DNA of 64,000 bases from Dehalococcoidia bacterium (GTDB lineage: Bacteria; Chloroflexota; Dehalococcoidia; Plut-88900). The notes beneath the pieces were generated by a model. It had not been told where the DNA came from and did not search any database. It saw only the letters and a list, made by a program, of their open reading frames with translations. This document shows, piece by piece, positions 9,081-36,691 of the stretch (position 1 is the stretch's first letter; each line of letters opens with the position of its first letter). Both the position numbers and the translations under genes were made by a program. Location of the stretch: assembly GCA_965197585.1 (NCBI GenBank), contig OZ240215.1, positions 448,001 through 512,000 on the forward strand, written 5' to 3'.

Positions 9081-9087
9081 ATAGCAG

Positions 9088-10768: not shown

Positions 10769-10880
10769 TTTACAAACTCCTTTGCAATGTTGAATTGAAT
10801 CATGGCATCCACTGAACTCAGGTAAAATGGCCAGTTGAGGACTTGGTCGTCGGCAATGAAGACAACGCTCATATGGCTCC

Positions 10881-11909
10881 TTATCGGTGGTAGCCCAGCT
10901 CTGCAAGCAGAGCGTCCATCTTGGCAACGGCCTCGTCCCGGCGTTTTTCGGCCTCCCGGAGTTGGACCAACGCTTCCTCGACACTCATTACCTCTACCGG
11001 CTCCGTTGTGTCCACGTAGCGGCTGATGTTCAGGTTGAAGTCGTTGGCCTTGATCTCGTCCAGATCGGCGACGTGGGCGAAGCGGTCCACCTCCTCGAAG
11101 GCTTCATAGGCCTCGACGATCTTCTCGATGTGCTCCTTGTAGAGGAAGTTCTGGGCCTTGCCCTGCCGGAAGTAGTCCGGCTGGGCCGCGTCGATGAAGA
11201 GGACCTTTCCGCGTCGGGGTTCGGGCTTGGCCTTGTTCAGCACGCAAATGGCTACCGGGATGCTCGCCCCGAAGAAGAGGTTCGGGGCCAGGCCGATGAT
11301 AGCCTCGAACATGTCCGCCTCGACTATCCCCTGCCGGATCTTTCCCTCTGCGCCACCCCGGAAGAGGATGCCGTGGGGCATGACCACGCCGACCTGCACC
11401 GCCTGTCCCTGTACGAGATTGTACGCAGCGACCTCGCCGGAATACGGACTCGCAACAACCTCGCCGGACGCCCGAAGCGACTCCAACTCCAGCAACTCCG
11501 AACGGGCTAGGGCCAGGGCATCGGGAGCCGCATCGGGATTCGCTTCGAGAGTCGAGAGCCGGGCGCGAGCGAGTGCCACGTGCCGGCTCAGCTCGGGTAT
11601 CTTGATAAAGGCGATGGGCTGCCCCACCTCTACCGGGTCGCCCACATCGACCGGCACGTCGATGACGTTGCCCGTGATGTCGGAGATGACCGTGTAGCGT
11701 TCACCAGGCTGCGCGAGGACGCACTCGGAAGACAGGCTCCTCTCGACGCTTCCAAACAGGCCCCAGGCAACGAGGCCCAACAGCGCAATCCCCAGCCCGG
11801 CCACGATCACCCATTCATGGGGAGCCGTGACACGCAGCAGACCGTCTAGGGGCTCCGTCTGCCCCCTGCGCGCGAATGCCTCCTCGCGGAATAGCCGTCT
11901 CCTCGCCAA
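10881..11909 (-). pseudogene. In-frame chimera: N-terminal half of an NHLP-type HlyD secretion protein fused to the C-terminal part of HsdM
   Basis: LFREEAF..EPLDGLLRVTAPHEW, TM helix and lipoyl-like hairpin, then GVVMPHGILFRGGAE...NLFFGASIP...VLFIDA...FNLNISRYV; no SAM-binding or NPPF motif. Confidence 0.85.
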
Positions 11910-18583: not shown

Positions 18584-19258
18584 TCAATCATCCAGCAGCC
18601 CGTTCTGCGCAGCCCACACCACGACCTCCTGCTTCGAGTCGACGCCCAGCTTGATCTAAATGGTGTAGATGGCGTTTCGGACGGTGACCACCTTGACTCC
18701 CCTTGCCGCCGCAATCGCAACGTATGACATGCCCCGGCAGAACGACACAAGTATCTCCTTCTCCCTCTGGGTCAGGTTGACGTCCTTCGCTCTCGCCCCG
18801 CTCCGCATCCTGTGGAACACCCGCCTCACCACCTCGGTCGGCAGACGCCCCTCGCCCGCAGCCGCGCTCTTCATCATGCCCAGGACCTGGTCCATCCCGG
18901 CCACCTTCTGAAGATAGCCGGCCGCACCGGCGGCCACCGCCTCTATGACGGCGTTCGCCTCCGTCGAGGCGGTCAGCATGAGCACCCGTGTCTTGGGCAG
19001 AGACTCCATGATCTCCCGGCACGCCTCCACCCCGTCCATCTTGGGCATCATGACGTCCATGACGATCAAGTCGGGCGACAGCTCGGAGGCCGCCTTCACC
19101 GCCTCCACTCCGTCCCTGGCCTGCCCCACCACCTCGAACTCCTCGGACCGCTCCAGAATCACCTGAAGACCTTCCCGCGTGACTGAATGGTCGTCGGCGA
19201 GCAGCACCCTTATGCGACGAGACTCTGTTGACAATTTATCCCTCCTGTTGTCCGCCAC
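18584..19258 (-). pseudogene. NarL/LuxR-family response regulator with a premature TAG at 18656-18658
   Basis: VLLADDH...MDVMMP...YLQK receiver domain and LTQREKEIL HTH; the frame continues after the TAG as IKLGVDSKQEVVVWAAQNGLLDD*. Confidence 0.85.
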
Positions 19259-20459
19259 CGGACAATGGCATCACGCAGGTCACGCTGGCGCCCCCGGCCG
19301 GTCCCGTGGGCTCGACGATAAGGCGTCCGCCCAGACGCCCGGCGTACACCCGCATGTTTGCGAAGCCGTGGCCCCGCTCCTCGTAGTCGTCGGGAAGGCC
19401 CACCCCGTCGTCCGACACCGACAGCCTGAGCTCATCCCGTCCGAAGTCGAGATCGACCAGCACCCGGCTCGCCCCGGCATGGCGAAGGGCGTTGGCGAGG
19501 GCGTTGTGGGCTATGGAGAACAGGAGACTCCTGACCTCCACCGAAAGCGGCGGCTCCACACCGTTCTGCGTCAGCTCCGCCGACACCGACGTGATGGACT
19601 TGAACGTCGCGACGTGCGAGTCCAGGGTCCAGCCCAACTCACCGCCCTCGAATATGCGGCCCATGTCAATCGGGTGTCTCAGCTGCCAGACGGCGGTCTT
19701 GGAAAGCCGTGAGGTGGCATCGAGCCTGGCGGCGAGCTCTTCGTTCGAGTCTCCGGCAACCTGTCTGGCCGCGTCTATCCCCAGGCCGATCATGAAGGCG
19801 GTCTGGGCGGCCGTATCGTGAATGGCCTGGGAGAGCTCGATCCATTCCCGTTGCAGCTCCCTTTCCCTTTCTATCGCCGCTCTCGCCCTGCGCCGCTGAA
19901 ACCGGGTGATGAAGTTGACAACCAGGACAACCCCGAACATCGCGAGCACCCTGGAGAACAGCATCTTCTCGTTGATCCCATCGAAGGCCATGCCCGAGCC
20001 GACGGTCAGGCTCACGCCGATATATATGGAGGCGGTGATGGTCGTCCAGGTGAGATTCAGCAGAGCGGAGGTGAAGATGGCGGCAAAAGCGGCGAGGGCA
20101 GGATAGTAGGGAATGTAAAGGAAGTTGTCGAAGCCCCCATCGACGCCGCCGCTGGCCGTGATCAGGGCTATGTCCATGGCGCTGAGGACGAGCAGGTGAC
20201 GCCACGTCACCCTGCGCCGGGAGAGCAGACGGTAGTGCACGTAGCCGTTGAGTGCGACCAGCGGCACGTGCATGAGCATGAACGGAATGTACTTGGCATG
20301 GGTGAACGTCGGTCGATAGGCGAGTTCGATCACGGCGCCGGCCCAGAAGAGCCAGCGTAGCCACACCGTGACCTTGGCGGCGTACGATGCCTCGCCCGGG
20401 TCGAGCCAGAGCATCTGGAGAAGCCGCGTCTGTATTGCGCCCATCGATGTCTTTATCAA
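19236..20459 (-). CDS. Membrane sensor histidine kinase (HisKA_3 type)
   Basis: Multiple TM segments; IHDTAAQ H-box; NALRHA, DDGVG, GHGFANM boxes. Confidence 0.92.
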   Translation of the reverse strand: MIKTSMGAIQTRLLQMLWLDPGEASYAAKVTVWLRWLFWAGAVIELAYRPTFTHAKYIPFMLMHVPLVALNGYVHYRLLSRRRVTWRHLLVLSAMDIALITASGGVDGGFDNFLYIPYYPALAAFAAIFTSALLNLTWTTITASIYIGVSLTVGSGMAFDGINEKMLFSRVLAMFGVVLVVNFITRFQRRRARAAIERERELQREWIELSQAIHDTAAQTAFMIGLGIDAARQVAGDSNEELAARLDATSRLSKTAVWQLRHPIDMGRIFEGGELGWTLDSHVATFKSITSVSAELTQNGVEPPLSVEVRSLLFSIAHNALANALRHAGASRVLVDLDFGRDELRLSVSDDGVGLPDDYEERGHGFANMRVYAGRLGGRLIVEPTGPAGGASVTCVMPLSGGGQQEG

Positions 20460-21127: not shown

Positions 21128-22393
21128 ATGACATTTCGAAGACCCAAGCTGCCAATCAAGACTGCGGTAGCCATGGCGCTGCTGGTGACGGCCGTCGTTG
21201 CCGCCTCAATGTCCATCCCGCCGAGTGGTACGGTCCTGGCCCAGTCTCCCGGCATCTGCGGCCGCACGCAGAAGGTGCAGGACGCCATCCTTGCCAAGCT
21301 GTCAGACGTTACCGCCTGCGGGGACGTCACCGATGCAAACCTGTCAGGGATAACCGGGACGCTTGCTCTGTCCGATATGGGTGTGACCACGCTCAAGTCC
21401 GGGGACTTCGCCGGTCTCAGCGGGTTGCAGGAACTGAAACTGGACGACAACCAGATCAGCTCGCTGCCCGAGGACATCTTCTCCGGACTCGCCGGACTCG
21501 AACGCCTGAACCTGACCTTCACCGAGGTGAGCTCGCTCCCGGAGAACCTGTTCGACGGCCTGACCAACCTACAGAACCTGAAGCTGTACCAGAACGGTCT
21601 TACGGCGCTGCCTGAGGAAATATTCGATGGCCTGACCAACCTGAAGGATCTCACATTCACCGCCAACAAGGTCAGCGCGCTCCCGGAGGAAGTGTTCGAT
21701 GGGCTAACTAGCCTCAACTCACTGGAGCTCCCCAGGAATTCGGTCGCTGCATTGCCGGAGGAGGTGTTCGACGGGCTCACCAACCTGATGGCCCTGAACC
21801 TGCACCAGAACAAGATCACCGCGTTGCCCGAGGGGGTGTTCGACGGCCTCGGCAATTTGACGTGGTTGTACCTGAGCAGGAACGAACTCACGGCGTTGCC
21901 CTCGGGCGTATTCGAAGACCTTGGCGAACTGCAGCAACTGACCCTGTTCAACAACAAAATCACGGCGTTGCCCTCAGGCGCGTTCGAGGGTCTGGGCGAT
22001 TTGAATTCCTTAGTCATGAGTCATAACCAGATATCAACATTGCCCGCAGGCGTGTTCGAAGGCCTCGGAAATCTGGATAGCGTGGAATTCGACCAAAACC
22101 CCGGGGCGCCGTTCACCATCACTGCGGAGTTGGAAAAGAAGGGCGCCGGTGTGGTCGTCAGTATCGACGAGGGAGCTCCGTCTTCGTTGTCGGTAACCCT
22201 TTCGGCCACGGGGGGCACGCTTTCCACGGACACTGTCACCATCGCTCGTGGCGCCCTGGAGAGCGAGACCGTCACCGTGACGGCATCCGGCACGGTCACG
22301 GTCAGCGTCGATTCGGTTGCTAAGAGTGGGACCAGGCTCATAGGTCTTGAGATAGTCGCCGGCAGTGACCTGACGCTTGTGGGGGGGATGTAG
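21128..22393 (+). CDS. Secreted leucine-rich repeat protein (about 9 complete 24-aa LRRs)
   Basis: Signal peptide; Cys cap GICGRT..C; LxxLxLxxNxxxxLPxxxFxG repeats. Confidence 0.93.
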   Translation: MTFRRPKLPIKTAVAMALLVTAVVAASMSIPPSGTVLAQSPGICGRTQKVQDAILAKLSDVTACGDVTDANLSGITGTLALSDMGVTTLKSGDFAGLSGLQELKLDDNQISSLPEDIFSGLAGLERLNLTFTEVSSLPENLFDGLTNLQNLKLYQNGLTALPEEIFDGLTNLKDLTFTANKVSALPEEVFDGLTSLNSLELPRNSVAALPEEVFDGLTNLMALNLHQNKITALPEGVFDGLGNLTWLYLSRNELTALPSGVFEDLGELQQLTLFNNKITALPSGAFEGLGDLNSLVMSHNQISTLPAGVFEGLGNLDSVEFDQNPGAPFTITAELEKKGAGVVVSIDEGAPSSLSVTLSATGGTLSTDTVTIARGALESETVTVTASGTVTVSVDSVAKSGTRLIGLEIVAGSDLTLVGGM

Positions 22394-22508: not shown

Positions 22509-23609
22509 ATGGAGACGGAGAGGAGGAGACCGGTGAGGAAGCTGCGATTCCAGACGACGGCCGTTCTGGCTGTCCTCGTCCCGCTTCTCCTGGTCGCCTG
22601 TGGTGATGGGGATGCTGGGTTGTCCCGCGCCGAGGTTGAGGAGATCGTGCGCGCGGAGATTGCGGAAGCGCCTGCGACGCCCCAGTCGGAACGCGGGCTT
22701 ACCCGCGCCGAGGTGGAACAGATAGTGCAGGACGCCATCGCGGACGTCCCCGACCCGCAACCGGGACTCACGTCCTCGGAGGCAGAGCGGATAGCCCGCG
22801 GCGTGATCGCGTCCATCCCGCCCAAGTCCGCCCTTGCCGAGTACACCCGGTACTTCGTGGGCAACGCCGTCAGCCTATACGAGACCCAGGGACTCGACGC
22901 GACCCTGGCCTACTACAACCGCCCGGAGAGCATCGACGGCCAGTGGTACCTGTTCATCATCGACGAGAATGGCCTCGCCATCGCTCACCCCGACCCGGGC
23001 CGCCTGGGACTCGACCTAAAGGGCTGGGTGGGGACCGACGCCAACGGTTACAACTTCGGGCCGGACATGCTCTCAGCCACCGAGGAGGGCAAGTGGGTGT
23101 CCTACGTATACAGGAACCCGGAGAGCGGCGGACTCGGTTCCGACAACACCGGGGCCATGCAGCTCAAGAACGCCTGGGTTGTGAAGCACGATGGGCTGCT
23201 GTTCGCCTCCGGCTGGTATGTCAACGCCGACGAATTCACCAGGTCCCTGGTGTTCGCCGCCGTTAACAAGTTCCGTTCGGCAGGACTGGAAGCGACCATC
23301 GCATACTTCACTGGCCCCGAGAGCGTCTATTCAGGACTGGCAGCGACTATCGACTACTACAACAGCGCCCAGACCGTCGAAGGGGAATGGTTCGCGTTCA
23401 TAGCCGACAGCAGCGGCACGATCGTAGACCACTACAACAAAGCACTGGTGGGAACGGACCTCAAAGACCTGCTCGGCACGGATGTGTTCGAGGCCACCGC
23501 AGAGGGCAACTGGGTGACCACGGAGGACGTGCGCGTTTGGGTGGTCGGCTACGACGGGATGACCTTCGGGTCGGGCTGGCATAGCGGCCACGACGAATCG
23601 GGTAGCTGA
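22509..23609 (+). CDS. Lipoprotein with tandem Cache-like ligand-binding domains
   Basis: Lipobox LLVAC; WYLFIIDENG..IAHP...G.WVSY...K...V..HDGLLFASGWY; start may be GTG 22533. Confidence 0.8.
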   Translation: METERRRPVRKLRFQTTAVLAVLVPLLLVACGDGDAGLSRAEVEEIVRAEIAEAPATPQSERGLTRAEVEQIVQDAIADVPDPQPGLTSSEAERIARGVIASIPPKSALAEYTRYFVGNAVSLYETQGLDATLAYYNRPESIDGQWYLFIIDENGLAIAHPDPGRLGLDLKGWVGTDANGYNFGPDMLSATEEGKWVSYVYRNPESGGLGSDNTGAMQLKNAWVVKHDGLLFASGWYVNADEFTRSLVFAAVNKFRSAGLEATIAYFTGPESVYSGLAATIDYYNSAQTVEGEWFAFIADSSGTIVDHYNKALVGTDLKDLLGTDVFEATAEGNWVTTEDVRVWVVGYDGMTFGSGWHSGHDESGS

Positions 23610-24187: not shown

Positions 24188-27100
24188 ATGACTCTACCCA
24201 GCCGCCGTGCTCTTCTAACCCTCCTCATCCTTCCCGGGCTACTAGCCCTATTCGCCCTGTACTTGGTCATACCCTGGTCCACAGCCTCCGCGCAGCAAGC
24301 CTCACAGGAGGGTACGTGTCCCGGAGCCGACTCAGCCCCGACGCCGACCGTGGTAGAGGTTGGGGCCGTTCCTATCGTGGTCGAGTCTACTACCGACGAG
24401 TACTTCGTGCTCTATGTACGGCACGATCTGGACGCGGACACCACGTTTGAAGTACCGGTCGGGGTAACCCTGGGCCAGGACGGCGCCACGACGCTGACCG
24501 AGAGCTTGGAGGCACTGCCCAAAGAGCGCTACCGGGTGGAGAAATACCTCGTCAGCGACCCCGCCGATGTCGATGGCGATTGCACTGATGACATTACAGA
24601 GCTGGCGGACCCGGTGGGCATGAACCCGGTGAACCCTGTCCCAGCCATGAGTTTTGACGATGGCGCGGCGGCCATTCCTAACCGCGAGACGTATGTGTCG
24701 CTTGCCTACAAGGGCGACAGCGGTATCGACAGCCATCTCAGGAACCTGGAGGCCGTCAAATTCCATATGGTCGACATGAACACCGACCGCCCATCCGTCT
24801 ATTTCATGAACACCAAGACGTACCGACGACACGATGACTTCCAGGCGGCCGTTGGTCTCGAGGTCAACCCACTCCACGGACATGAGACGATGGTCGCCGA
24901 GATGGTATACCACCCGAAAGCGGTCGCTCCCGACGGGTCTCTGGGTGTTTATCGTTTCCAGTTCGGGGCCAACGATGTCTACTCTTTCAAAGAGATCTCC
25001 TATGCGTTCACGGTTCTGGCAGCCAGCATGCCGCTGCTGGAAGAAAACCTCGCCTATTACCCGATGTGGTCGAAGGCGGTGGCACGCTATCACGAGGATC
25101 AGTCTCTCTATGATGATTCCCGGGTCGACGTGCTGCTTGCAGAAGACATCGCTTTCGATCTGGATTTCATCTCCCTCAACCCAGGGGAGGGGTTCGGATT
25201 CCTGCGGGTCATGTCGCTGGAGGAACGCCCCAACCCTCGCGACATCGTGATCTACGAGACGCTGCCAAACGATCTCTCCCGCGTTGCCGGAATCATCACC
25301 ACCGTACCCCAAACGCCGCTTTCGCATGTCAACCTGCGCGCGGTGCAGGACGGCGTCCCCAACTCCTTTATTCGAGACGCCCTCGAAGACGGCGACATCG
25401 ATGGCCTGATCGGCAGCTACGTCCAATACCTGGTGGGCTCGTCCGGCTACTTCCTCCGCGCCGCCACACCCGAGGAAGTGGATGCCCACTACAAAGCCTC
25501 GCGGCCCTCTGAGACGCAAACGCCGGAACGGGACCTCACGGTCACGGAGATCACGGCCCTGAGCGACATTGAATTCGACGACTGGAACGCGTTCGGCGTC
25601 AAGGCGGCGAACGTGGCCGTTCTGCGGACCCTGGGTTTTCCTGACGGCACCGTCCCAGACGGGTACGCGGTGCCGTTCTATTTCTACGACGAGTTTATGA
25701 AGCACAACGAGTTCTATGACGATGTGGAGGAGATGCTGGCTGACTCGGACTTCCAGTCGGACTTCGAGACCCAGGAGAAAGAGCTCAAGAAACTCCGCAA
25801 GAAAATCAAGAAGGGCGAGACCCCGGAGTGGATTATCGCGGCGCTGACGGAGATGCACTCCAAATACCCTGAGGGGCAATCGCTGCGCTACCGGTCCAGC
25901 ACCAACAACGAAGACCTGCCCGGTTTCAGCGGCGCGGGGCTGTACGACTCCAAGACCCAGCATCCCGATGAGACCGAAGAAGACGGGATTGCCAAATCGC
26001 TCAAGCAGGTGTACGCCAGCCTGTGGAACTTCCGGGCCTTCACCGAACGCGATTTCTATCGCGTCGATCACCTGGCGGCGGCGATGGGGGTGCTGGTGCA
26101 TCCCAACTACTCGGACGAACTGGCCAACGGCGTCGCCGTCAGCTTCGATCCTATCCGAATGAGATACGGAAATTACTACGTCAACACGCAGCTCGGGGAG
26201 GACCTGGTCACCAATCCCGACGCGCACTCGGCGCCGGAGGAAATCCTGTTGCACCAGGGCGGTGAGTATACCGTCCTCGCGACCTCCAACCAGATGCAGC
26301 GGGGGCAACTCCTTATGAGCGACGCCCAAATGGATCAGTTGCGCCGTCATCTCGAACTGATCCATGACGAGTTCGCCAAGCTGTACGGCATCGAGGGCGA
26401 TGAGCCGTTCGCCATGGAGATCGAGTTCAAGATCACCAGTGACGATATTCTGTCGATCAAGCAGGCCCGCCCCTGGGTCTTCGGCGACGACGTGCCATCG
26501 GAAAACGACCCGGCCACCGGAGCGCCCACCATCAGTGGGACGGTTCAGGTGGACGAGACGCTGACGGCGGACATCTCGGGCATCGCCGACGCCGATGGGC
26601 TGACCAGCTTGTTGTACGGCTCCCTCTACAGCTACCAATGGATTCGGAACGATGGAACGACGGAGACGGACATTGAGGACGCCGCAAACTCCACCTATAC
26701 CCTGTCGGACGCCGACGTGGGAAAGACCATCAGGGTGCGGGTGAGCTTTACCGACGACCGGGGCTACGAGGAGACGCTGACCAGCACAGCAACCACTGCC
26801 GTCACCCGGCCCAACAGCCCGGCCACGGGAGCGCCCACCATCAGTGGGACGGCTCAGGTGGGCGAGACGCTGACGGCGGACATCTCGGGCATTGCAGATG
26901 CCGATGGGCTGACCAGCTTGTTGTACGGCTCCCTGTACAGCTACCAATGGATTCGGAACGATGGAACGACGGAGACGGACATCGAGAATGCCACAAGCTC
27001 GACCTATACCCTGTCGGACGCCGACGTGGGAAAGACCATCAAGGTGCGGGTGAGCTTCACCGACGACTGGGGTCATGAAGAGAACTTAGTCAGCGCGGCG

Positions 27101-30100
27101 ACGACCGCTGTGCAGCCTCGTCCCAACAGCCCGGCCACGGGAGCGCCCACCATCAGTGGGACGGCTCAGGTGGACGAGACGCTGACGGCGGACATTTCGG
27201 GCATCGCCGACGCCGACGGGCTGAATAGCGTTTCTTACAGCTACCACTGGATTGCCAACGATGGGACCACCGACACGGACATACTGGGAGCGACCAGCTC
27301 CACCTACACACTGTCGGACGACGATGTGGGCAAGACCATCAAGGTGTGGGTGAGCTTCACCGACGACTGGGGTCATGAAGAGAACTTGGTCAGCGCGGCG
27401 ACGACCGCTGTGCAGCCTCGTCCCAACAGCCCGGCCACGGGAGCGCCCACCATCAGTGGGACGGCCCAGGTGGGCGGGACCCTCACGGCGGACGTTTCCG
27501 GCATCACCGACGCCGACGGGCTGACCAACGCTTCGTACATTTATCAGTGGATTGCAAACTATGGGACCACCGACACGGACATAAGCGGTCAGACAGGCTC
27601 GACCTACACCCTGGTCTCCGCCGACGTGGGCAAGACCATCAAGGTGCGGGTGGGCTTCACCGACGACGCCAACAACAGCGAGACCCTGACCAGCGAGGCG
27701 ACGGCGACGGTGCCGACGGCGGACGAGTGGTGGGCGGATATGTTGGTGGTGGATTACGGCACCGGCGCCATCGGCGCCGCCAGCGCCGATCTCTTTTCGA
27801 ACTCCGGGGGCAACGCTGGCCTTGAGGCAAAGTGGCTGTGGTACTACTCTCCGGAGCGGAAGCTTCGCTTGGCTTTTACGGATAACGTTCCCAACGTCAT
27901 CGACCTGACGCTGCTAGTTGGCGATGTCGCGCTGGCATTACAGGGAGGGGATGCCACCTTTACCTGGGAAGACGTCGACGTCGATTGGGAGGACGGTCAG
28001 ACCCTTACGACGCGCATCGTACGTGATTGGACGAGTGCGGTCGTCGCCCTCAACAGCCCGGCCACTGGGTTGCCGACCATCATTGGCACGGCTCAGGCGG
28101 GCGAGACGCTGACAGCGGACGGTTCCGGCATCAACGATGAGGACGGGCTGACCAGCGTTTCGTACAGCTACCAGTGGATTTCCAACGACGGGACCACCGA
28201 CACGGACATCCAGGACGCCACGGATTCCACCCACACCCTGACCGACGACGACGCAGGCAAGACCATCAAGGTGCGGGTGTCCTTCACCGACGACGCCGAC
28301 CACGAGGAGACGCTGACCAGCGGGGCGACGGGGGTGGTTGCGGCCAAGCCCAACTCTCCGGCCGCGGGAGCGCCGACCATCATTGGTACGGCCCAGGCGG
28401 GCGAGACGCTGACGGCGGACGTTTCTAGCATCGCCGACGTCGACGGGCTGACCAACGTTTCCTACAGCTACCAGTGGATCAGGAGCGACAACGGCACCGA
28501 CGCCGACATTGGGGGTCAGACAGCTTCGACCTACACCCTGTCCGACGAGGACGAGGGCAAGGCCATCAAAGTGAAGGTGTCCTTCACCGACGACGCCGAC
28601 CACGAGGAGACGCTGACCAGCGCGGCGACGGGGGTGGTTGCGGCCAAGCCCAACTCTCCAGCCACCGGGTTGCCGACCATCATTGGCACGGCCCAGGCGG
28701 GCGAGACGCTGACAGCGTACGTTTCCGGCGTCAACGATGAGGACGGGCTGACCAGCGTTTCGTACAACTATCAGTGGATTGCCAACGACGGTAACACCGA
28801 CACCGACATATCGGGACAGACGGACTCCACCTACACCCTGACCGACGCTGCCGCAGGCAAGACCATCAAGGTGCGGGTGTCCTTCACCGACGACGCCGAC
28901 CACGAGGAGACGCTGACCAGCGCGGCGACGGGGGTGGTTGCGGCCAAGCCCAACTCTCCAGCCACGGGAGCGCCGACCATCGGCGGCACGCCCCAGGTGG
29001 GCGGGACGCTGTCGGCGGACACCTCCGGCATATCGGACGACGACGGGTTGACCAACGTCTCTTACAGCTACCAGTGGCTGTCCGGAGGGTCGGACATCGC
29101 CGGAGCCACCGGGTCCAGCTACACCCTCAAGGACGTGCAGAAAGGGCAGACAATCCAAGTGCGGGTCTCCTTCCGCGACGATGCCGACAACGATGAGACG
29201 CTGACCAGCGATACGACGGCGACGGTGGTGGGGCCGCCGCTGACCGTCGGCAGCGATTTCACTCTGGACGCCGCCAACGGCTATCCGACCGGCATCTGGT
29301 CGGACGGGACCACCATGTGGGTCGCGGACTTCGAGGACGCCAAGCTGTACGCCTACCGGATGTCCGACCGGAGCCGGGATTCAGGTAAGGATTTCACTCT
29401 GGACGCCGCCAACGGCTCTCCGGTGGGCATCTGGTCGGACGGGACCACCATGTGGGCGTCGGACTTCGCCGACGGCAAGCTGTACGCCTACCGGATGTCC
29501 GACCGGAGCCGGGACTCGGGCAAGGACTTCAACACGTTGTCCGCCGCCGGCAACCTCTTTCCCGAGGGCATCTGGTCGGACGGGACCACCATGTGGGTCG
29601 CGGACACCGGCAACGACACGGTGTTCGCCTACGACCTGTCTACCAGGGCCTGGGACTTCGAGAAGGACATCACGCTGGGCCCCGGCCACGGTTCTCCGAT
29701 GGGCGTCTGGTCGAACGGATCCACGATGTGGGTTTCGGACTGGCGGGACGCCAAGCTGTACGCCTACCGGATGTCGGACCGGAGCCGGGACGCCGGCAAA
29801 GACTTCGCGCTGGACGCCGACGATGAATCTTACGAGGGCATCTGGTCGGCCGGGTCCACGATGTGGGTGGCGTCCCGCGACGACGCTAAGCTCTACGCCT
29901 ACGACTGGAACAATCCTGCCACGGGAGCGCCGACGATCATCGGCAGGGTCCGGGTGGACGAGACGCTGACGGGGGGCACCCGCTCCATCGCCGACGCGGA
30001 CGGGCTGGACGCCGCCATCTTCGAATATCAATGGGTTTCGAACGGCGGGAACGCCGACACGGACATCGCGGGCGCGACCGATTCGACCTACACCATCGTC

Positions 30101-33100
30101 CCCGGCGACCGGGGCAGGACGATCAAGGTCAGGGTGTCCTTCACCGACGGCGCCGGCAACGATGAGTCGCTGACCAGCGAGCCGACGGGCCGGATCGGGG
30201 CCTCGGGCATCTGCGACCGGACGCCTTCGGTGATGGCGGCTATCGTCGCCGGGATGCCCGGCGTCGGCGACTGCTCGGAGGTTTCCGAGACGAGGCTCAG
30301 GACGTGGACCGGCTCCCAGCACTTCGGCCCCGACGTCACGCCCGGGCTGTACCTGCAGGGGAGAGGACTGTCGGCCCTGCAGGCCGGGGATTTCCGGGAC
30401 CTGCACGCGCTGCGCGCCCTGGACCTGAACAGAAACTTCCTCCAGACGGTCCCGGATGGACTCTTCGATGACCTCCGGGCGGTGGAGGAGCTGTATCTGT
30501 CGGGAAACTTCATTGACGAACTGCCTGACGGGACGTTCGCCGGCCAAACCGCGAATCTGAGCGTTCTGGACCTGTCGGCGAACGGCCTGGAGACGCTGCC
30601 GGACGGCGTGCTGCGAGACCTGGCCGGACTCGTCTCGCTGTCGCTCGCGGGCAACGGGCTCGTGCACCTCCCGGGCGGACTTTTCGACGACCTGGCTAGG
30701 CTCGAAGTTCTGGACCTGTCCGCCAACTCGATAGACGAGCTGCCGGAAGAGGTGTTCGGCGGTCTCGGCGACCTGCAGAGTCTTTCCCTCGCGGGGAACG
30801 ACCTGAAGAGCCTGCCGGAGGACGTGTTCGCCGACCTCGGGAGCCTCGGAGAGCTGGACCTTTCGGGAAACGAGCTCAAGAACCTGCCCGTCGGCGTCTT
30901 CGAAGGTCTGTCGGGGCTGACGGACCTCGACGCAGGCGACAATCCGGGCGCACCTTTCACGTTCACCGCAGAGCTGGAGCGTCGGGGAGACGATACGGTC
31001 ATGGTCCGATTGGGCGAAGGCGCGACGCCGTTTGATCTTCAGATCGAACTGTCGGCCCGTAACGGAGATCTGTCCGCCGAGACCGTCACCATCGCATCAG
31101 GCAGTTCATATTCGAACGTTGTGGAGGTTCGTCCGCACGGGCATCATCTCGTCACAGTGGAAATCGACTCAGTTGCTTTCCTGGTGCCTGCAGGAGGCTC
31201 CACGTCGGGAATCCGCGCCGACCGCGGCAGTGACATGCATTTGTGGGTCGGCAGACCATTGGTTCAAAGGGAATGGATCCAGGACGAAGATTTTGCTCTG
31301 CATCCGGAGAACGCGGACCCGAAGAGCATATGGTCGGACGGCGAAACGCTGTGGGTCGGCGACGATGCCGCTGCCAAGGTGTTCGCCTACAAGCTGTGGG
31401 ACGACCCCGGCACCGAGGCCAGCGAGTACGGGACCCGAGACCCCGGCAGGGACGTTCCGAGCCTCGGCGAGGAGGACTTCTACGTCACCGGCCACGGCCT
31501 CCGATTGTACGTCGCCGAAGAGTCCCTTGACGGCGCCAGCCGGGACGTATTCGGCTACGACCTGACGAGTTTCACGCGCGCGGAAGATCGGGACTTCGTC
31601 TACGGGGGCTTGAACGTCGCCGGGGGAGTGTTCATCGTGCGCGGCACGGCGACGGACGGCCGTCACCTGTGGATCACCAACACCACGTCGCACGCGCACG
31701 CCTTCCGTCTGTTCGACGACCCTGAGACGCCGGAGGACGAATACGGGAGGCCGGACACGTCCCGGAAGCTGACGATGCCCGGCTCGGGCCAGCTGAGCGG
31801 CCTGTTCACCGACGGACGGACGATGTGGGGCGTCAGGTTCGCCTCGAACGACGCCTCGGTGCGGAGCGTGAAACTGTCCGACGGGACCGAGGCGGGGTAC
31901 GACTTTCCGCTCCACGAGGACAACGACCACGCCTCCGGCATCTGGTCGAACGGGGAGACCTTCTACGTCGTCGACGCCGCCGACGACATGATCTACACCT
32001 ATCCTGGCGTCGCCGGCGTCGTTCCGCCGGTCGTCGAAGACGCGGAGACGACCGCCGCGCTGGTCGGCAACACGACGCAGCCCCGCGCAGCGGGCCACGA
32101 CCTGGGCTCGACCGGCGCTAAGAGGGCACAGGCGTTCACCACCGGGACCAGCAGAGCCGGGTACGCGCTGGCGTCCGTCGGGATAGAGTTCGACGAAGTT
32201 TCGGACCCGTCGTCCGCGCCGTCCGACCTTGAGACGACGCTCAACGCGGACGGCGGCGGCGTCCCGGGCGACGCTCTCTGCACGCTCATCGCCCCGGCGA
32301 GCCTGTCGGAACGGAGCGTGAACACCTTCGCCGCTCCGGCCTCGGGGACGACCTGCCCGGTTCTCGAGAAAGAGACGACCTACTTCGTGATCGTCGAAAG
32401 GGTCCGCGTCACCGGTTCCGGCGCCATCGCCGTCAGTGGAACGGTGAGCGGCTCCGAAGACACGGGAGCCGCGGAGGGGTGGTCCATCGCGGACGGAAGC
32501 GCGGCATATTCTCCTCAGGCCGCTGCTCAGGGATGGGCCTCCGACGCGTTTTCCTACAAGATCGAGGTGCGCGGCTCCTTCATCAACAACCCGGCTACCG
32601 GCGAGGCGACGGTCACGGGCACGCCGCAGGTGAAGGGGACGCTCGCCGCGGCGGTCTTCGACGTGTCGGACGACGACGGGCTGACAGGCGCGGCCTACTC
32701 GTACCAGTGGATGCGGGTCGACGGCGCGACCGAGACGAACATCGGGACCGGCTCGTCCACCTACACGCTCATCGCCGAGGATCTGGGCAAGCGGATCAAG
32801 GTGCGGGTGGCGTTCGTCGACGACCGCGGCAACTATGAAACGCTGACCAGCGAGGCCACGCCGTCGGTCGAGGCTTTCAAGGCGGAGGACCAGGCCGGAA
32901 CCGTTTCGCTCTTTCCGGCGAGACCCAGGGTCGGGACGGTGGTCAACGCCGCGCTGAGCGATCCCGACGGCCTCGAAGGCGGCGGCTCGGGGCCTGCGGC
33001 GTCCCTGGGCGCGGTTTCGTGGAGCTGGGCCAGGTCTCCTGACAGAATCGCCTGGACCGGCGTCGAGGCCTACGGCGAAGGAGACAGCTACGTTCCAACC

Positions 33101-36100
33101 GAAGAAGACGAAGGGATGCTGCTCAGGGCCGAGGCGTCATACACCGACGGGCACGGCCCCGGCAAGTCCGCGGAAGCGGTTTCGCCCGCCGTCGTGGGCG
33201 CCCGCGAACCGGGCCCGGAACTGACGGTGACGGAAATAGTCACGGGCCTGTCCTACCCCTGGGGCATCGATTTCACCCCCGACGGGACGATGCTGTTCAC
33301 CCAGCGCGCCGGCGTGCTGAACGCGAGGCTGACCGACGGCACCGTCAAGCGGGTCGACGCGGATCTCGGAGATCTGCTTGTCGACGGGTTCGCCGGCCTG
33401 CAGGCGCTGGCCGTGGACCCGGACTTTACGACCAACCGGCGGTTCTACACGCTCCAAGGGCACGCCGGACGCGAGATGCAGGTGATCGCCTGGACGATCG
33501 ACACGGACTACGACGAAGCCACACGCGTCGTCGATCCCCTGGTAGAGGGAATACCGATCGGGCCCGGCCCCTGGCACTCGGGAGGCCGGCTGCTATTCGG
33601 TCCGGAGGGATATCTATGGATCGCGACCGGCGACGGGCGGGTGGTGACAGGCGCGCAGGACCTGACGTCCCTGGGCGGCAAGGTCCTCCGCATAGACCCG
33701 CGGACGGGCGCCGGGGCGCCGGGCAATCCGTTCGGCGCCTCCTCGCCGGTGTACTCCTACGGCTTCCGCAACCCCCAGGGCCTGGCTCTCCGCCCGGGCA
33801 CGGACCAGATGTGGCTGGTGGAGCACGGCCCGAAACACGACGACGAGATCAATCTGCTCGCGCCGGGGGGCAACTACGGCTGGGACCCGATCCCGGACGA
33901 CGGCGGGTTGGTCTTCTACGACTACTCCGACGAGGCCGGCGTCCCCATGACCGACCTGGCCAAGTTCCCGTCTGCCCGCCAGGCCAGATGGTCCTCGGGA
34001 TTCCCCACCCTGGCAACCAGCGGGGCCGTTTTCCTGGATGGCCCCCAATGGGGGGAGTGGGAAGGGCGACTCGCGGTGGCTACGCTCAAGACGAAGTCGC
34101 TTCGTGTCTTCGAGTTCACGGAACAGGGCGATTTCGCGGGTCAGATCGTCGTTCCGGAGCTCGACGGCAGCCAGGGCCGGCTGCGGACCCCCGTGCTCGG
34201 CCCCGACGGGGCGCTGTACATCGCCACCTCCAACAAACCCGGCGTCGACAGGATTCTCAGGGTGGCCGCCAACCGCGCCGCGACGGGAGCGCCCTCTATC
34301 ACCGGCACGCCCCGCGTGGGCGAGACGCTGACGGCGGACGCCTCGAGCGTCGCCGACTCGGACGGGCTGACCAACGTCTCATACAGCCACCAGTGGATTC
34401 GGAACGAGGGGAACAGCGACTCCGATATACCGGACGCAACGGACACCACCTACACGCTCGTCGCCGATGATGTTGGCAAGACCATCAAGGTACGGGTGAC
34501 ATTCACCGACGACGCGGGGAACGAGGAGACCCTGACCAGCGCGGCAACGGAGGTGGTGCAGCAGGCTAGCAACGCCTGGTCCGCCACGATGACCGTGGGG
34601 ACAAGGGATGGGTTCACCGGGTATTCGTACTGGGGCAATCCCCACCTGGGGTCCCTGTCGACCACCGAGATCGAATGGGACGGCAAGACCCACTATGTCA
34701 GGGTCCTTTTTCTCAAGGACGGCGATCTCCGGCTCGGCCTGAACGAAGAGATGTTCTCCACAGGCTTCGTGCTGTCGATTGGGGACGAGGAGTTCGGCTC
34801 GGCGGACGCTATGGTGGATCATGGCGGTGCGTCCTACAGATTCCGGTGGGATGACCCGGGATTGGGCTGGTCGGATGGGGACGAGGTGTCGGTGAACCTC
34901 GTGCAGTCCGATCAGAATACCCCGGCCCTGGGCGCGCCGACCATCAGCGGCACGGTCCGAGTGGATGAGATGCTGACGGCAGACACCACTGATGTTGAGG
35001 ACGCGGACGGGTTGACCAACGTGTCGTACAGCTACCAGTGGATGGCTGACGGCGTGGACATTCAGAACGCGACCAGTTCCACCCACAAGCTCGTATTCCC
35101 CGACCAGGGCAAGACCATCAAGGTGAAGGTGTCCTTCACCGACGACCGGGACAACGCCGAGGCCCTTACCAGCGCGGCGACTGTGGCCGTTGTTGCAGCG
35201 CCTAACCGCGAGGCCACAGGTGAGCCCACCATCACCGGGACCACACAGGTGGGAGAGACGCTGACGGCCCTCACCAACGGCATCACCGACGAGGACGGGC
35301 TGGACGACGTTTCCTACAGCTACCAGTGGATTTCCGGCGGTACGGACATCGACGGAGCCACCGGCTCCAGCTACACGCTCACCAATAGTGAGCAGGGCCA
35401 GACCATCCAGGTCCGGGTGACCTTCACCGACGATGCAGACCACGAGGAGACGCTGACCAGCGCGGCGACGGGGGTGGTTGCGGCCGAGCCCAACTCTCCG
35501 GCCGCGGGAGCGCCCACCATTGATGGAACGGCCCAGGTGGGAGAGACGCTGACGGCGGACATCACGGACATCGCCGACGAGGACGGGCTGACCAACGTTT
35601 CGTACAGCTACCAGTGGGTTGCCGGAGGGTCGGACATACCGAGAGCAACGTCCTCCAGCTACACGCTTACAACCAGCGAGCAGGGACAGACCATCCAGGT
35701 TCGGGTGTCCTTCACCGACGACGCCGACAACGAGGAGACGCTGACCAGCGCGGCGACGGCGGCGGTGGCCGCCAAGCCGAACAGCCTGGCCACCGGCCAG
35801 CCCACCATCAGCGGAATCGCTCATGCAGGCCAGACATTGACGGCGGGGACGTCGGGCATTGCCGACGACGACGGGCTGGACGACGCCATATTCAGCTACC
35901 AGTGGATTGCCAACGACGGGACCACAGACATGGACATCGAGGATGCTGACGACTCAACTTACACTGTATCGGACGATGACGTGGGCAAGGTCATCAACGT
36001 GAGAGTGTCCTTCACCGACGACGCAGGGAACCAGGAGACGCTGACCAGCGGTCCCACCGCCTCTATAAGCCGGAGCATCATCTACGTGGTCGAACCGACT

Positions 36101-36691
36101 GCACACCCGACCAACCTCGTGGCCCAGTGGAAGAACGGTTCGGTCAGACTGTCATGGTACGCGCCCATGTTGGATACGGACTCGATCACCGGCTACAGGA
36201 TATACCGTGATTCTCAGCCGATCATTTACCGTCTGGGCTCCGGGACACGGTACCGGGACCAAGATGCAACCGAGGCCGGCTCAGAATACACCTACTGTGT
36301 CAGCGCCGTCAGGGACGGGGCCGACTTCAGCGAGTGCTCGGACGATGCGAGGGTCACCGTGCCGGGAGCGACGACCACCGTTGTGTCGCCGGATGCGACC
36401 GATCGACATCCGACGGACCTCGTTGTGAGTCTCGTGGACGGCGTGGTGGTGCTGACCTGGGACGCTCCCACCATGGAAGCCGAGACCGTCACGGGCTACG
36501 AGGTCCTGCGCCGCCGACCCGGGAATGAGGAGCACACACTGGTCCCGTACGGCCAGGCCATTGGCGGTACGACATTCATTGACCATGAGGCGACAGAGCC
36601 GGGAGTCAAGTACACCTATCGCGTGAAGGCTCTGAGAGGCGACGAGAAGAGCCGATGGTCCAACTACGTCAACATCACTATACCTCAGTAG
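24188..36691 (+). CDS. Giant secreted multidomain protein: His-swivel and PEP/pyruvate-binding (ATP-grasp) module, 15 Ig-like repeats, beta-propeller repeats, LRRs, PQQ glucose/sorbosone dehydrogenase, 2x FN3
   Basis: Signal peptide ending ASA-QQ; GIITTVPQTPLSHVN; GVKAAN, RSSTNNED...FSGAGLYDS, IKQARP; PATGAPTISGT repeats; GIWSDGTTMWV repeats; HSGGRL...GFRNPQG...NYGW. Confidence 0.9.
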   Translation: MTLPSRRALLTLLILPGLLALFALYLVIPWSTASAQQASQEGTCPGADSAPTPTVVEVGAVPIVVESTTDEYFVLYVRHDLDADTTFEVPVGVTLGQDGATTLTESLEALPKERYRVEKYLVSDPADVDGDCTDDITELADPVGMNPVNPVPAMSFDDGAAAIPNRETYVSLAYKGDSGIDSHLRNLEAVKFHMVDMNTDRPSVYFMNTKTYRRHDDFQAAVGLEVNPLHGHETMVAEMVYHPKAVAPDGSLGVYRFQFGANDVYSFKEISYAFTVLAASMPLLEENLAYYPMWSKAVARYHEDQSLYDDSRVDVLLAEDIAFDLDFISLNPGEGFGFLRVMSLEERPNPRDIVIYETLPNDLSRVAGIITTVPQTPLSHVNLRAVQDGVPNSFIRDALEDGDIDGLIGSYVQYLVGSSGYFLRAATPEEVDAHYKASRPSETQTPERDLTVTEITALSDIEFDDWNAFGVKAANVAVLRTLGFPDGTVPDGYAVPFYFYDEFMKHNEFYDDVEEMLADSDFQSDFETQEKELKKLRKKIKKGETPEWIIAALTEMHSKYPEGQSLRYRSSTNNEDLPGFSGAGLYDSKTQHPDETEEDGIAKSLKQVYASLWNFRAFTERDFYRVDHLAAAMGVLVHPNYSDELANGVAVSFDPIRMRYGNYYVNTQLGEDLVTNPDAHSAPEEILLHQGGEYTVLATSNQMQRGQLLMSDAQMDQLRRHLELIHDEFAKLYGIEGDEPFAMEIEFKITSDDILSIKQARPWVFGDDVPSENDPATGAPTISGTVQVDETLTADISGIADADGLTSLLYGSLYSYQWIRNDGTTETDIEDAANSTYTLSDADVGKTIRVRVSFTDDRGYEETLTSTATTAVTRPNSPATGAPTISGTAQVGETLTADISGIADADGLTSLLYGSLYSYQWIRNDGTTETDIENATSSTYTLSDADVGKTIKVRVSFTDDWGHEENLVSAATTAVQPRPNSPATGAPTISGTAQVDETLTADISGIADADGLNSVSYSYHWIANDGTTDTDILGATSSTYTLSDDDVGKTIKVWVSFTDDWGHEENLVSAATTAVQPRPNSPATGAPTISGTAQVGGTLTADVSGITDADGLTNASYIYQWIANYGTTDTDISGQTGSTYTLVSADVGKTIKVRVGFTDDANNSETLTSEATATVPTADEWWADMLVVDYGTGAIGAASADLFSNSGGNAGLEAKWLWYYSPERKLRLAFTDNVPNVIDLTLLVGDVALALQGGDATFTWEDVDVDWEDGQTLTTRIVRDWTSAVVALNSPATGLPTIIGTAQAGETLTADGSGINDEDGLTSVSYSYQWISNDGTTDTDIQDATDSTHTLTDDDAGKTIKVRVSFTDDADHEETLTSGATGVVAAKPNSPAAGAPTIIGTAQAGETLTADVSSIADVDGLTNVSYSYQWIRSDNGTDADIGGQTASTYTLSDEDEGKAIKVKVSFTDDADHEETLTSAATGVVAAKPNSPATGLPTIIGTAQAGETLTAYVSGVNDEDGLTSVSYNYQWIANDGNTDTDISGQTDSTYTLTDAAAGKTIKVRVSFTDDADHEETLTSAATGVVAAKPNSPATGAPTIGGTPQVGGTLSADTSGISDDDGLTNVSYSYQWLSGGSDIAGATGSSYTLKDVQKGQTIQVRVSFRDDADNDETLTSDTTATVVGPPLTVGSDFTLDAANGYPTGIWSDGTTMWVADFEDAKLYAYRMSDRSRDSGKDFTLDAANGSPVGIWSDGTTMWASDFADGKLYAYRMSDRSRDSGKDFNTLSAAGNLFPEGIWSDGTTMWVADTGNDTVFAYDLSTRAWDFEKDITLGPGHGSPMGVWSNGSTMWVSDWRDAKLYAYRMSDRSRDAGKDFALDADDESYEGIWSAGSTMWVASRDDAKLYAYDWNNPATGAPTIIGRVRVDETLTGGTRSIADADGLDAAIFEYQWVSNGGNADTDIAGATDSTYTIVPGDRGRTIKVRVSFTDGAGNDESLTSEPTGRIGASGICDRTPSVMAAIVAGMPGVGDCSEVSETRLRTWTGSQHFGPDVTPGLYLQGRGLSALQAGDFRDLHALRALDLNRNFLQTVPDGLFDDLRAVEELYLSGNFIDELPDGTFAGQTANLSVLDLSANGLETLPDGVLRDLAGLVSLSLAGNGLVHLPGGLFDDLARLEVLDLSANSIDELPEEVFGGLGDLQSLSLAGNDLKSLPEDVFADLGSLGELDLSGNELKNLPVGVFEGLSGLTDLDAGDNPGAPFTFTAELERRGDDTVMVRLGEGATPFDLQIELSARNGDLSAETVTIASGSSYSNVVEVRPHGHHLVTVEIDSVAFLVPAGGSTSGIRADRGSDMHLWVGRPLVQREWIQDEDFALHPENADPKSIWSDGETLWVGDDAAAKVFAYKLWDDPGTEASEYGTRDPGRDVPSLGEEDFYVTGHGLRLYVAEESLDGASRDVFGYDLTSFTRAEDRDFVYGGLNVAGGVFIVRGTATDGRHLWITNTTSHAHAFRLFDDPETPEDEYGRPDTSRKLTMPGSGQLSGLFTDGRTMWGVRFASNDASVRSVKLSDGTEAGYDFPLHEDNDHASGIWSNGETFYVVDAADDMIYTYPGVAGVVPPVVEDAETTAALVGNTTQPRAAGHDLGSTGAKRAQAFTTGTSRAGYALASVGIEFDEVSDPSSAPSDLETTLNADGGGVPGDALCTLIAPASLSERSVNTFAAPASGTTCPVLEKETTYFVIVERVRVTGSGAIAVSGTVSGSEDTGAAEGWSIADGSAAYSPQAAAQGWASDAFSYKIEVRGSFINNPATGEATVTGTPQVKGTLAAAVFDVSDDDGLTGAAYSYQWMRVDGATETNIGTGSSTYTLIAEDLGKRIKVRVAFVDDRGNYETLTSEATPSVEAFKAEDQAGTVSLFPARPRVGTVVNAALSDPDGLEGGGSGPAASLGAVSWSWARSPDRIAWTGVEAYGEGDSYVPTEEDEGMLLRAEASYTDGHGPGKSAEAVSPAVVGAREPGPELTVTEIVTGLSYPWGIDFTPDGTMLFTQRAGVLNARLTDGTVKRVDADLGDLLVDGFAGLQALAVDPDFTTNRRFYTLQGHAGREMQVIAWTIDTDYDEATRVVDPLVEGIPIGPGPWHSGGRLLFGPEGYLWIATGDGRVVTGAQDLTSLGGKVLRIDPRTGAGAPGNPFGASSPVYSYGFRNPQGLALRPGTDQMWLVEHGPKHDDEINLLAPGGNYGWDPIPDDGGLVFYDYSDEAGVPMTDLAKFPSARQARWSSGFPTLATSGAVFLDGPQWGEWEGRLAVATLKTKSLRVFEFTEQGDFAGQIVVPELDGSQGRLRTPVLGPDGALYIATSNKPGVDRILRVAANRAATGAPSITGTPRVGETLTADASSVADSDGLTNVSYSHQWIRNEGNSDSDIPDATDTTYTLVADDVGKTIKVRVTFTDDAGNEETLTSAATEVVQQASNAWSATMTVGTRDGFTGYSYWGNPHLGSLSTTEIEWDGKTHYVRVLFLKDGDLRLGLNEEMFSTGFVLSIGDEEFGSADAMVDHGGASYRFRWDDPGLGWSDGDEVSVNLVQSDQNTPALGAPTISGTVRVDEMLTADTTDVEDADGLTNVSYSYQWMADGVDIQNATSSTHKLVFPDQGKTIKVKVSFTDDRDNAEALTSAATVAVVAAPNREATGEPTITGTTQVGETLTALTNGITDEDGLDDVSYSYQWISGGTDIDGATGSSYTLTNSEQGQTIQVRVTFTDDADHEETLTSAATGVVAAEPNSPAAGAPTIDGTAQVGETLTADITDIADEDGLTNVSYSYQWVAGGSDIPRATSSSYTLTTSEQGQTIQVRVSFTDDADNEETLTSAATAAVAAKPNSLATGQPTISGIAHAGQTLTAGTSGIADDDGLDDAIFSYQWIANDGTTDMDIEDADDSTYTVSDDDVGKVINVRVSFTDDAGNQETLTSGPTASISRSIIYVVEPTAHPTNLVAQWKNGSVRLSWYAPMLDTDSITGYRIYRDSQPIIYRLGSGTRYRDQDATEAGSEYTYCVSAVRDGADFSECSDDARVTVPGATTTVVSPDATDRHPTDLVVSLVDGVVVLTWDAPTMEAETVTGYEVLRRRPGNEEHTLVPYGQAIGGTTFIDHEATEPGVKYTYRVKALRGDEKSRWSNYVNITIPQ
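26501..36060 (+). repeat. Fifteen ~290-310-bp intragenic Ig-like repeats in blocks
   Basis: Counted units of N.PATG.PTI.GT.QVGETL...YQW...TIKVRVSFTDD...ETLTS; some neighbours are nearly identical at DNA level. Confidence 0.85.

Follow-up and report, generated by a model that had tools for sequence, protein, structure and literature searches.

The 64,000-nucleotide (nt) window analysed here is a stretch of a Dehalococcoidia bacterium contig (OZ240215.1, positions 448,001 to 512,000), and carries a giant open reading frame (ORF) that is preceded, a few bases upstream of its ATG, by the purine-rich stretch AAAAAGGGTGG (Table 1). The subject of this report is the N-terminal, dikinase-like module of the encoded protein, which consists of a family-specific N-terminal region, a putative phosphohistidine carrier domain and an ATP-grasp nucleotide-binding domain, in that order. 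An earlier reading of this DNA, made from its letters alone (the sequence-only reading), had proposed a secreted dikinase-like module from a set of short motifs, every one of which is found at its quoted place in the translation of the ORF. This motif set, together with the Pfam and Foldseek matches, is far beyond chance.

The nucleotide-binding half of the module is a real dikinase ATP-grasp domain with intact catalytic residues. In the whole protein, the Pfam family PPDK_N (PF01326) matched residues 469 to 763 with E = 9.7e-25 and 88 bits, where the cut-off is 27, and residues 1 to 770 alone gave E = 8.8e-26 (88–91 bits across both Pfam runs) and, at E ≤ 10, only one further match, at chance level. 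The stretches that had been read as PPDK and phosphoenolpyruvate (PEP) synthase nucleotide-binding motifs, namely GVKAAN (470–475), VPDG (489–492), RSSTNNED (569–576), FSGAGLY (580–586), EIEF (744–747) and QARP (759–762), thus belong to a true ATP-grasp domain, as judged by PF01326 (E 1e-25) and by Foldseek (9e-16). PF01326 is present in all 32 aligned relatives. A sequence search of the PDB returned PEP synthases only (9dae_A, 4.2e-6); with the family profile, the match to 9dae_A reached 2.3e-16, and all nine matches cover the ATP-grasp part only. Likewise, hhalign aligned the full family profile with residues 14 to 243 of Escherichia coli PpsA (probability 97%), again the ATP-grasp part only, and NCBIfam aligned residues 454 to 679 with PEP synthase models over their first ~237 positions. 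We modelled residues 1 to 770 with AlphaFold2 from the 32-sequence alignment (mean per-residue confidence (pLDDT) 83.8, predicted template-modelling score (pTM) 0.64), and Foldseek returned 23 PDB matches at E ≤ 1e-3, led by rifampin phosphotransferase (RPH; 5hv2, 9e-16) and PEP synthase (2ols, 5.6e-15), with HpeI (9goj, 4.6e-14) and PPDK (1kbl, 5.4e-8) also among them. Among 218 full modules, R569, E575 and D576 are invariant, K472 is kept in 217, E746 and Q759 in 212 each and R761 in 211, the remainder being mostly gaps. Residue conservation across these 218 modules suggests purifying selection on the chemistry.

Upstream of the ATP-grasp domain, the string VAGIITTVPQTPLSHVNLRAVQDGVP (residues 366 to 391, nt 25283–25360) contains His380, which would be the phospho-intermediate and is present in 216 of the 218 full modules, along with T376 (218) and S379 (208). 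A GI[IV]T motif precedes His380 and a G[IV]P motif follows it by 9–11 residues, as in PpsA; judged from this spacing, the motif-level likeness to the swivel motif is real. The AlphaFold2 model places His380 at the N terminus of a helix (residues 380 to 388). A Foldseek search with a model of residues 145 to 460 (pLDDT 86.7) gave swivelling β/β/α domains as the best PDB matches, none of them reaching E ≤ 1e-3: AF_0055 (2.2e-3), PPDK (1dik, 2.6e-3), RPH (5hv2, 3.5e-3, 109 columns, root-mean-square deviation 3.3 Å, probability 1.00), the Enzyme I N-domain (1zym, 2.8e-2) and the phosphoryl-carrier domain of PPDK on its own (2fm4, 0.11, target TM score 0.52), with MccF and Staphylococcus aureus pyruvate kinase also appearing. 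For the swivel motif put forward by the sequence-only reading, the fold agrees, whereas the proposed check against PF00391 returned no match in residues 1 to 770 (hidden Markov model search, E ≤ 10). These structural matches support, without proving, a swivel-type fold for residues ~325 to 445.

The region ahead of the carrier had been described as a single unrecognised domain of ~300 residues. It is indeed without a Pfam or PDB identity; it is not one domain, being divided into a β-sandwich, an Asp-rich loop and an α/β domain (Table 1). Residues 1 to 468, the β-sandwich included, matched no Pfam family at E ≤ 10, the model of residues 145 to 460 gave no PDB class besides the swivel fold in Foldseek, and the ESM Atlas look-alikes of residues 43 to 455 are unnamed clusters only (scores 0.95, 0.92 and 0.91). 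In the Asp-rich loop, which may be a Ca2+ site, D127, D129, D131 and D135 are invariant in the 32-sequence alignment, and the first three are kept in 211, 212 and 212 of the 218 full modules, respectively. Cys44 and Cys132 are the sole cysteines in residues 1 to 770; both are present in 148 of 218 relatives and neither in 14, and the pair would fit one disulfide. In the α/β domain, N208 (204 of 218) and H215 (213 of 218) are near-invariant, which, along with the conserved core, argues for an active enzyme that has a specific site in its N-terminal part as well. From its position and conservation, the segment spanning residues 45 to 322 is a candidate for the acceptor-binding part. A query with residues 43 to 322 also found, among 1817 candidates, 334 short proteins that have the N-terminal region only; among the 120 listed no catalytic Pfam domain was found, and some contain an fn3 or cadherin-like domain. 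Some of the short proteins (among P0384–P0503) lie on megabase contigs. They may be pseudogenes, split genes or products of assembly frameshift errors.

Table 1. Features of the dikinase-like module, the giant ORF and the rest of the window (aa, amino acids; LRR, leucine-rich repeat).
Feature	Coordinates	Strand	Basis
Whole ORF, exported giant multidomain protein (likely), 4167 aa/codons	24188..36691	+	ORF call and Pfam
Putative signal peptide or anchor at the N terminus (aa 1-35), with RR, a hydrophobic core at aa 7-32, and ASA-QQ	24188..24292	+	Heuristic
β-Sandwich domain, aa ~45-122	24320..24553	+	AlphaFold2 model, six strands aa 54-121, block pLDDT mostly 87-94
Asp-rich loop DPADVDGDCTDDITEL at aa 124-139, with Cys132; may bind Ca2+	24557..24604	+	Conservation
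Family-specific α/β domain, aa ~145-322, candidate acceptor-binding	24620..25153	+	AlphaFold2 model
Swivel-type phospho-His carrier domain (predicted), aa ~325-445	25160..25522	+	Foldseek of aa 145-460 model
His380 codon CAT, predicted phosphoryl-carrier His in TPLSHVNLRA	25325..25327	+	Sequence, conservation
ATP-grasp nucleotide-binding domain (PPDK_N), aa ~455-765	25550..26482	+	Pfam, PDB sequence/profile search, Foldseek, hhalign
Non-catalytic remainder: Ig-like repeat arrays, LRR, β-propeller(s), fn3	26509..36691	+	Pfam, tandem-repeat arrays
HisKA_3 kinase, upstream	19236-20459	-	Pfam
LRR protein, upstream	21128-22393		Pfam
Cache-domain protein, upstream	22509-23609		Pfam
TrwB-like coupling protein, downstream	38080-40350		Pfam
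MarR-HTH and Replic_Relax (relaxase-like) protein, downstream	40331-41962		Pfam
rve transposase, downstream	43719-44609		Pfam
HsdR, type I restriction-modification set	3891-7001	-	
TIR-domain ORF between HsdR and HsdS	7833-9080	-	Pfam CAP12/Pycsar TIR 5e-26, PADLOC PDC-S35 6e-20
HsdS, type I restriction-modification set	9088-10380	-	
N6_Mtase, type I restriction-modification set	10881-11909	-	

Several lines of evidence suggest that the protein leaves the cytoplasm. The hydrophobic core at its N terminus is the sole hydrophobic 19-residue window in the whole protein and is followed directly by ASA-QQ; residues 1 to 42 have low pLDDT in the model of residues 1 to 770. As a crude stand-in for SignalP, we counted strongly hydrophobic 12-residue windows in the first 50 residues of relatives that start with methionine and have at least 20 residues before the module, and found them in 230 of 281, compared with 4 of 281 in a control segment (residues 201 to 250). 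The N termini visible at 80 genomic loci are mostly of the hydrophobic type too. Furthermore, the type A sorting domain TIGR04183 of the T9SS (type IX secretion system) scores above its cut-off in three of seven relatives tested and just below it in a fourth, and Pfam detected the anchors Por_Secre_tail, CW_binding_2 and SLH in five, two and one of the 32 aligned relatives, respectively. The frequent joint presence of Cys44 and Cys132 also speaks for export. The export signal claimed by the sequence-only reading is thus upheld by the heuristic and by the count among relatives, and export of the window protein is likely.

The module is widespread. Of the 8000 scored in a word-indexed search, 2366 were relatives at E ≤ 1e-3, with 61–98% identity in the 120 relatives listed. 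When 1.84 billion cluster representatives were searched exhaustively, 4316 matched at E ≤ 1e-3, and the count fell to 2567 at E ≤ 1e-10 and to 1257 at E ≤ 1e-30; a T9SS-type member used as the query has 3158 relatives at E ≤ 1e-3. The matched segment is always about residues 35 to 767, at any position in proteins of up to 3769 residues, and one protein (P0122) contains the module twice. Among 329 full-module proteins fetched, the module begins within 120 residues of the N terminus in 247 and further in for the other 82, and 133 are stand-alone modules of ~750–850 residues. The ~730-residue unit is therefore a self-contained, portable module. Its placement at the N terminus of a giant protein, as first described, holds for the window and is not a property of giant proteins as such, since in 82 of the 329 proteins the module is internal or C-terminal; a survey of architectures across genomes, which had been suggested, shows N-terminal, internal, C-terminal and stand-alone arrangements. 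The expectation that similar stand-alone secreted proteins already sit unannotated in databases was also correct: there are thousands of relatives, and their names, 'hypothetical' or 'PEP/pyruvate-binding domain-containing protein', are uninformative. Our literature search, with supplements and subscription journals outside its reach, found no published account of an exported dikinase-like family.

In species-representative genomes at least 606 stretches matched, from which we confirmed at least 581 loci; the best 80 of these were analysed as locus set L. The closest of these 80 is a Dehalococcoidia metagenome-assembled genome (MAG) with 98% identity over residues 1 to 770, and the others are MAGs of Dehalococcoidia, Acidimicrobiia (Candidatus Poriferisodalis among them), Acidobacteriota, Latescibacterota and Thermodesulfobacteriota; several genomes contain two or three copies. 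Host lineages such as these may be sponge-associated, as their names suggest. Among the relatives of the T9SS-type member, the source names include MAGs of Bacteroidetes, Verrucomicrobia, Planctomycetota, Spirochaetales, Anaerolineae and Acidimicrobiales. Seven of the 80 loci (L024, L037, L048, L050, L060, L065 and L075) have in-frame stops within the module or lack its end motif, which, as with the short proteins, may reflect pseudogenes, split genes or assembly frameshifts; we left these loci out and added the window module to build a FastTree tree of 74 modules, which spans MAGs of Chloroflexota, Actinomycetota, Acidobacteriota, Latescibacterota and Thermodesulfobacteriota. On this tree the phylum labels change 15 times, against a minimum of 4. 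Such mixing is compatible with transfer between co-resident lineages, with paralogy and binning errors as alternative explanations. The modules of a Terriglobia MAG (L049) and a Thermodesulfobacteriota MAG (L053) are near-identical (end branches 0.075 and 0.059, 100% support), which would be explained by a recent transfer between phyla or by the mis-binning of a contig.

In the window, we propose that a repeat-rich surface protein presents the module at its tip, its remainder presumably being the stalk and adhesion part. Pfam found 12 families at E ≤ 0.01 in the whole protein, including AIR9-type immunoglobulin-like (Ig) repeats, LRR_8 (best stretch, residues 2147 to 2206), a GSDH β-propeller (residues 3021 to 3352, E = 5e-66) and an fn3 domain at the C-terminal end (residues 4075 to 4162). 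The remainder is built of near-identical DNA tandem units: arrays of 300-nt and 288-nt units (26509-27667, 28072-29077 and 34967-35911) encode the AIR9-like Ig repeats, and a 135-nt array (29247-29902) encodes 'GIWSDGTTMWV' repeats that match no Pfam family. At the closest locus (L001), the ORF has 1978 codons from the same start, compared with 4167 here, a difference attributable either to repeat-number variation or to assembly collapse.

The gene neighbourhoods contain no recurrent enzymatic partner, as assessed by Pfam on 110 flanking ORFs (of 383 extracted, taking the longest ORF of 150–800 residues per flank) at 67 loci (L001–L067), and the module thus seems to work on its own. The flanking ORFs include transposases, sensors with Cache and HisKA_3 domains, and other surface proteins. 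At several Dehalococcoidia loci (L001, L008, L009, L042 and L054), as in the window, the module gene has a Cache or HisKA_3 ORF next to it, which could be a linked sensor, although not one that is general across loci. Eukaryote-like domains (ankyrin, SRCR, LDL-receptor class B, and LRR with cadherin-like) adjoin module genes at L049, L053, L059 and L026. Just downstream of the giant gene, the segment from the TrwB-like coupling protein to the rve transposase has a GC content of 0.70–0.72, compared with ~0.58 elsewhere in the window, and probably represents a mobile element that has integrated there; at L067, too, the module gene is flanked by a Replic_Relax ORF. Near the start of the window, the type I restriction-modification genes and the TIR-domain ORF (3891-11909, minus strand) look like a small defence island. 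The adjoining 1741-residue ORF (12958-18183, plus strand) has a sub-threshold AAA_22 match (E = 9e-4) and no PADLOC family, and may be a large uncharacterised NTPase-like protein. An ORF at 343-1302 (minus strand) has a weak PADLOC match to capP (6.3e-8).

The folds and the permuted order of the three stations, acceptor region, His carrier and ATP-grasp domain, fit a dikinase cycle, and for this reason we favour an exported dikinase-type phosphotransferase. On balance, it is probable that residues ~36 to 767 form a self-contained, exported and catalytically competent enzyme of this kind, with a permuted layout and an acceptor that is possibly a polymer. In the proposed cycle, the C-terminal ATP-grasp domain would bind Mg-ATP and transfer the β-phosphate to His380 on the swivelling carrier, with the γ-phosphate passing to water or phosphate; the carrier would then swing to the N-terminal region (residues 45 to 322) and phosphorylate an acceptor bound there. 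By analogy with glucan, water dikinase (GWD), a polymer or glycan outside the cell would be the likeliest acceptor, through one of its hydroxyls, with a small molecule as the next choice, and ATP would be the donor outside the cell. The supply of this ATP is the main weakness, because ATP is scarce outside cells, and the neighbourhoods at the 67 loci showed no linked ATP source, phosphatase or transporter. Other observations also weigh against this reading. The swivel-fold matches of the model of residues 145 to 460 are weak, with no PDB match at E ≤ 1e-3; PF00391 was found in none of the 32 aligned relatives (E ≤ 1); a profile of the His region aligned by hhalign with the wrong region of E. 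coli PpsA (E = 0.24); and the pTM of 0.60–0.64 in both models leaves the relative placement of the domains uncertain. In addition, the case for export comes from a heuristic and from the anchor domains of relatives, and neither Pfam nor the ESM Atlas look-alikes revealed a carbohydrate-binding module or known ligand-binding family in residues 1 to 455.

The same catalytic core and export evidence would serve an extracellular ATP quencher equally, in which water is the sole final acceptor, ATP is converted to AMP and two phosphates at the cell surface, and the N-terminal domains merely tether or regulate; the effect would be to eliminate a danger or contraction signal of the host, or to gain phosphate by scavenging. 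The lineage names of the nearest genomes and the eukaryote-like domains of neighbouring genes (ankyrin, SRCR, LDL-receptor, LRR and cadherin) suggest animal-associated bacteria, and ATP-coordinated contractions are reported in a sponge in one paper (PMC11883242). We nevertheless consider a quencher unlikely: the N-terminal 280 residues are conserved as broadly as the core, and their near-invariant N208 and H215 point to a specific acceptor site, T9SS cargo and MAGs of Verrucomicrobia, Planctomycetota and Spirochaetales indicate no single host type, and simple ecto-nucleotidases would do the same job more cheaply. Slightly less likely still is a surface phosphotransferase for small molecules, which, in the manner of RPH or of the phenol and hydroxyacetophenone dikinases, would inactivate or activate a diffusible compound such as an antibiotic, a toxin or a signal ahead of its entry into the cell. 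The top structural matches, RPH (5hv2, 9e-16; carrier 3.5e-3 at 3.3 Å) and HpeI (9goj, 4.6e-14), are in its favour, as are weak NCBIfam matches to RIF phosphotransferase and PigC/RedH ligases, but every NCBIfam score falls far under its cut-off (for RIF_Ptrans_rph, 56.5 where 999 is needed), the domains are ordered differently, Foldseek matched the acceptor domain with no rifampin-binding domain, and long adhesin-like stalks are better suited to contact with a surface or polymer than to the capture of diffusible molecules.

The problem of ATP supply would disappear if the module were an effector that acts in the ATP-rich interior of a host or competitor cell, once the giant protein has been taken up or delivered by contact. 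The giant repeat proteins that carry it, with their LRR and adhesin-type domains, its several copies per genome and its cross-phylum mixing on the tree of 74 modules (15 changes against 4), which is common for interaction genes, would all fit. However, no translocation, Rhs/PAAR, autoprotease or toxin-immunity feature was found in the protein or its neighbours, 133 of the 329 relatives are stand-alone with just a signal peptide or surface anchor, and the module sits at either end or in the middle of proteins, unlike typical C-terminal polymorphic toxins; delivery into cells is therefore improbable. The possibility we rate lowest, and regard as very improbable, is that the module is a non-catalytic relic, a pseudoenzyme serving as a nucleotide- or ligand-binding adhesion domain. 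In favour of a relic, activity is a prediction from sequence and models, the carrier has diverged past recognition by Pfam, and at 7 of the 80 loci the module has stops or is missing its end motif; yet the His and the ATP- and Mg-binding residues, which pseudoenzymes usually lose, are almost totally conserved across at least five phyla.

If the exported dikinase-type phosphotransferase is correct, an exported version with intact chemistry would mean ATP-driven phosphorylation outside bacterial cells. A bolder form of this interpretation, possible although we find it doubtful, is that the module represents the first ecto-dikinase family, in which uncultured marine and animal-associated bacteria spend extracellular ATP on phosphorylating a host or environmental polymer at their surface. 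Were this true, an ecto-dikinase might act in the way of GWD on starch and loosen an insoluble glycan or matrix so that it can be attacked or attached to, and would drain the host ATP signal as well, and the ~280-residue N-terminal region would be a new acceptor- or carbohydrate-binding fold. The module would define a new acceptor domain on a well-understood phosphotransfer machine, and it is a testable candidate for the means by which uncultured symbionts modify a host surface, polymer or ATP signal, the stand-alone forms being small enough for direct expression and assay.

Enzymes of the PPDK, PEP synthase, RPH and GWD types are known from the cytoplasm or from plastids. With PEP synthase (PpsA) and PPDK, the module shares a homologous nucleotide-binding domain (PF01326; PDB 9dae, 2ols and 1kbl) and a predicted swivel-type His domain with G[IV]P 9–11 residues after the histidine. 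In those enzymes, however, the ATP-grasp domain comes first and a TIM barrel is present, whereas in the module the ATP-grasp domain comes last, the barrel is lacking and the His domain is missed by PF00391. Consistent with the sequence-only reading, which saw no pyruvate-binding barrel, PEP-utilizers_C is absent from the 12 Pfam families of the whole protein (E ≤ 0.01) and from residues 1 to 770 at E ≤ 10. The NCBIfam equivalogs for PEP synthase and PPDK (NF005057, TIGR01418 and TIGR01828) score 72.8 against a cut-off of 598, 69.3 against 739.75 and 14.8 against 843, with matches covering only the first ~230 profile positions. Given the missing barrel and the sub-threshold scores, we rejected an identity as PEP synthase or PPDK. 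RPH (5hv1, 5hv2, 5fbs and 5fbt) is the closest in fold, with the top ATP-grasp match (9e-16) and a His-domain match (3.5e-3), and it likewise has three parts, an ATP-grasp domain, an acceptor domain and a swivelling His domain. RPH is cytoplasmic, its order is ATP-grasp, acceptor and His, whereas that of the module is acceptor, His and ATP-grasp, and the acceptor domains are unrelated by Foldseek; with this permuted order and an NF041857 (RIF_Ptrans_rph) score of 56.5 bits against 999, an identity as RPH was rejected as well.

Dikinases of the HpeI and phenylphosphate synthase type phosphorylate phenolic hydroxyls by passing phosphate from ATP to a histidine and on to the acceptor, and they are cytoplasmic and split into separate subunits. 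HpeI (9goj) matches the ATP-grasp domain of the module at 4.6e-14, but the module fuses all parts in one exported chain and has a different acceptor region. In layout, the module is most like GWD and PWD of plant and algal plastids, with which it shares the domain order, a presumed common chemistry and the absence of a PEP/pyruvate barrel. One account of GWD (PMC6805951) describes an N-terminal binding region, a catalytic His and a C-terminal PPDK/PEPS-like nucleotide-binding domain, and the order obtained here from Pfam and model coordinates agrees with this description, as the sequence-only reading had noted; the comparison with GWD is by description only, no GWD structure occurs among the PDB matches of the two models, and a 2026 review states that there is no high-resolution GWD or PWD structure (PMC12892837). 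In GWD, according to another source (PMC7569903), the β-phosphate of ATP passes to the His and then to an acceptor hydroxyl, and the γ-phosphate to water. Unlike GWD and PWD, which are plastidial, the module is bacterial and probably exported, and neither CBM45 nor CBM20 was detected in residues 1 to 468 (Pfam, E ≤ 10). Collectively, these comparisons describe the module as a probably exported, permuted variant of the dikinase type that is distinct from PEP synthase, PPDK and RPH.

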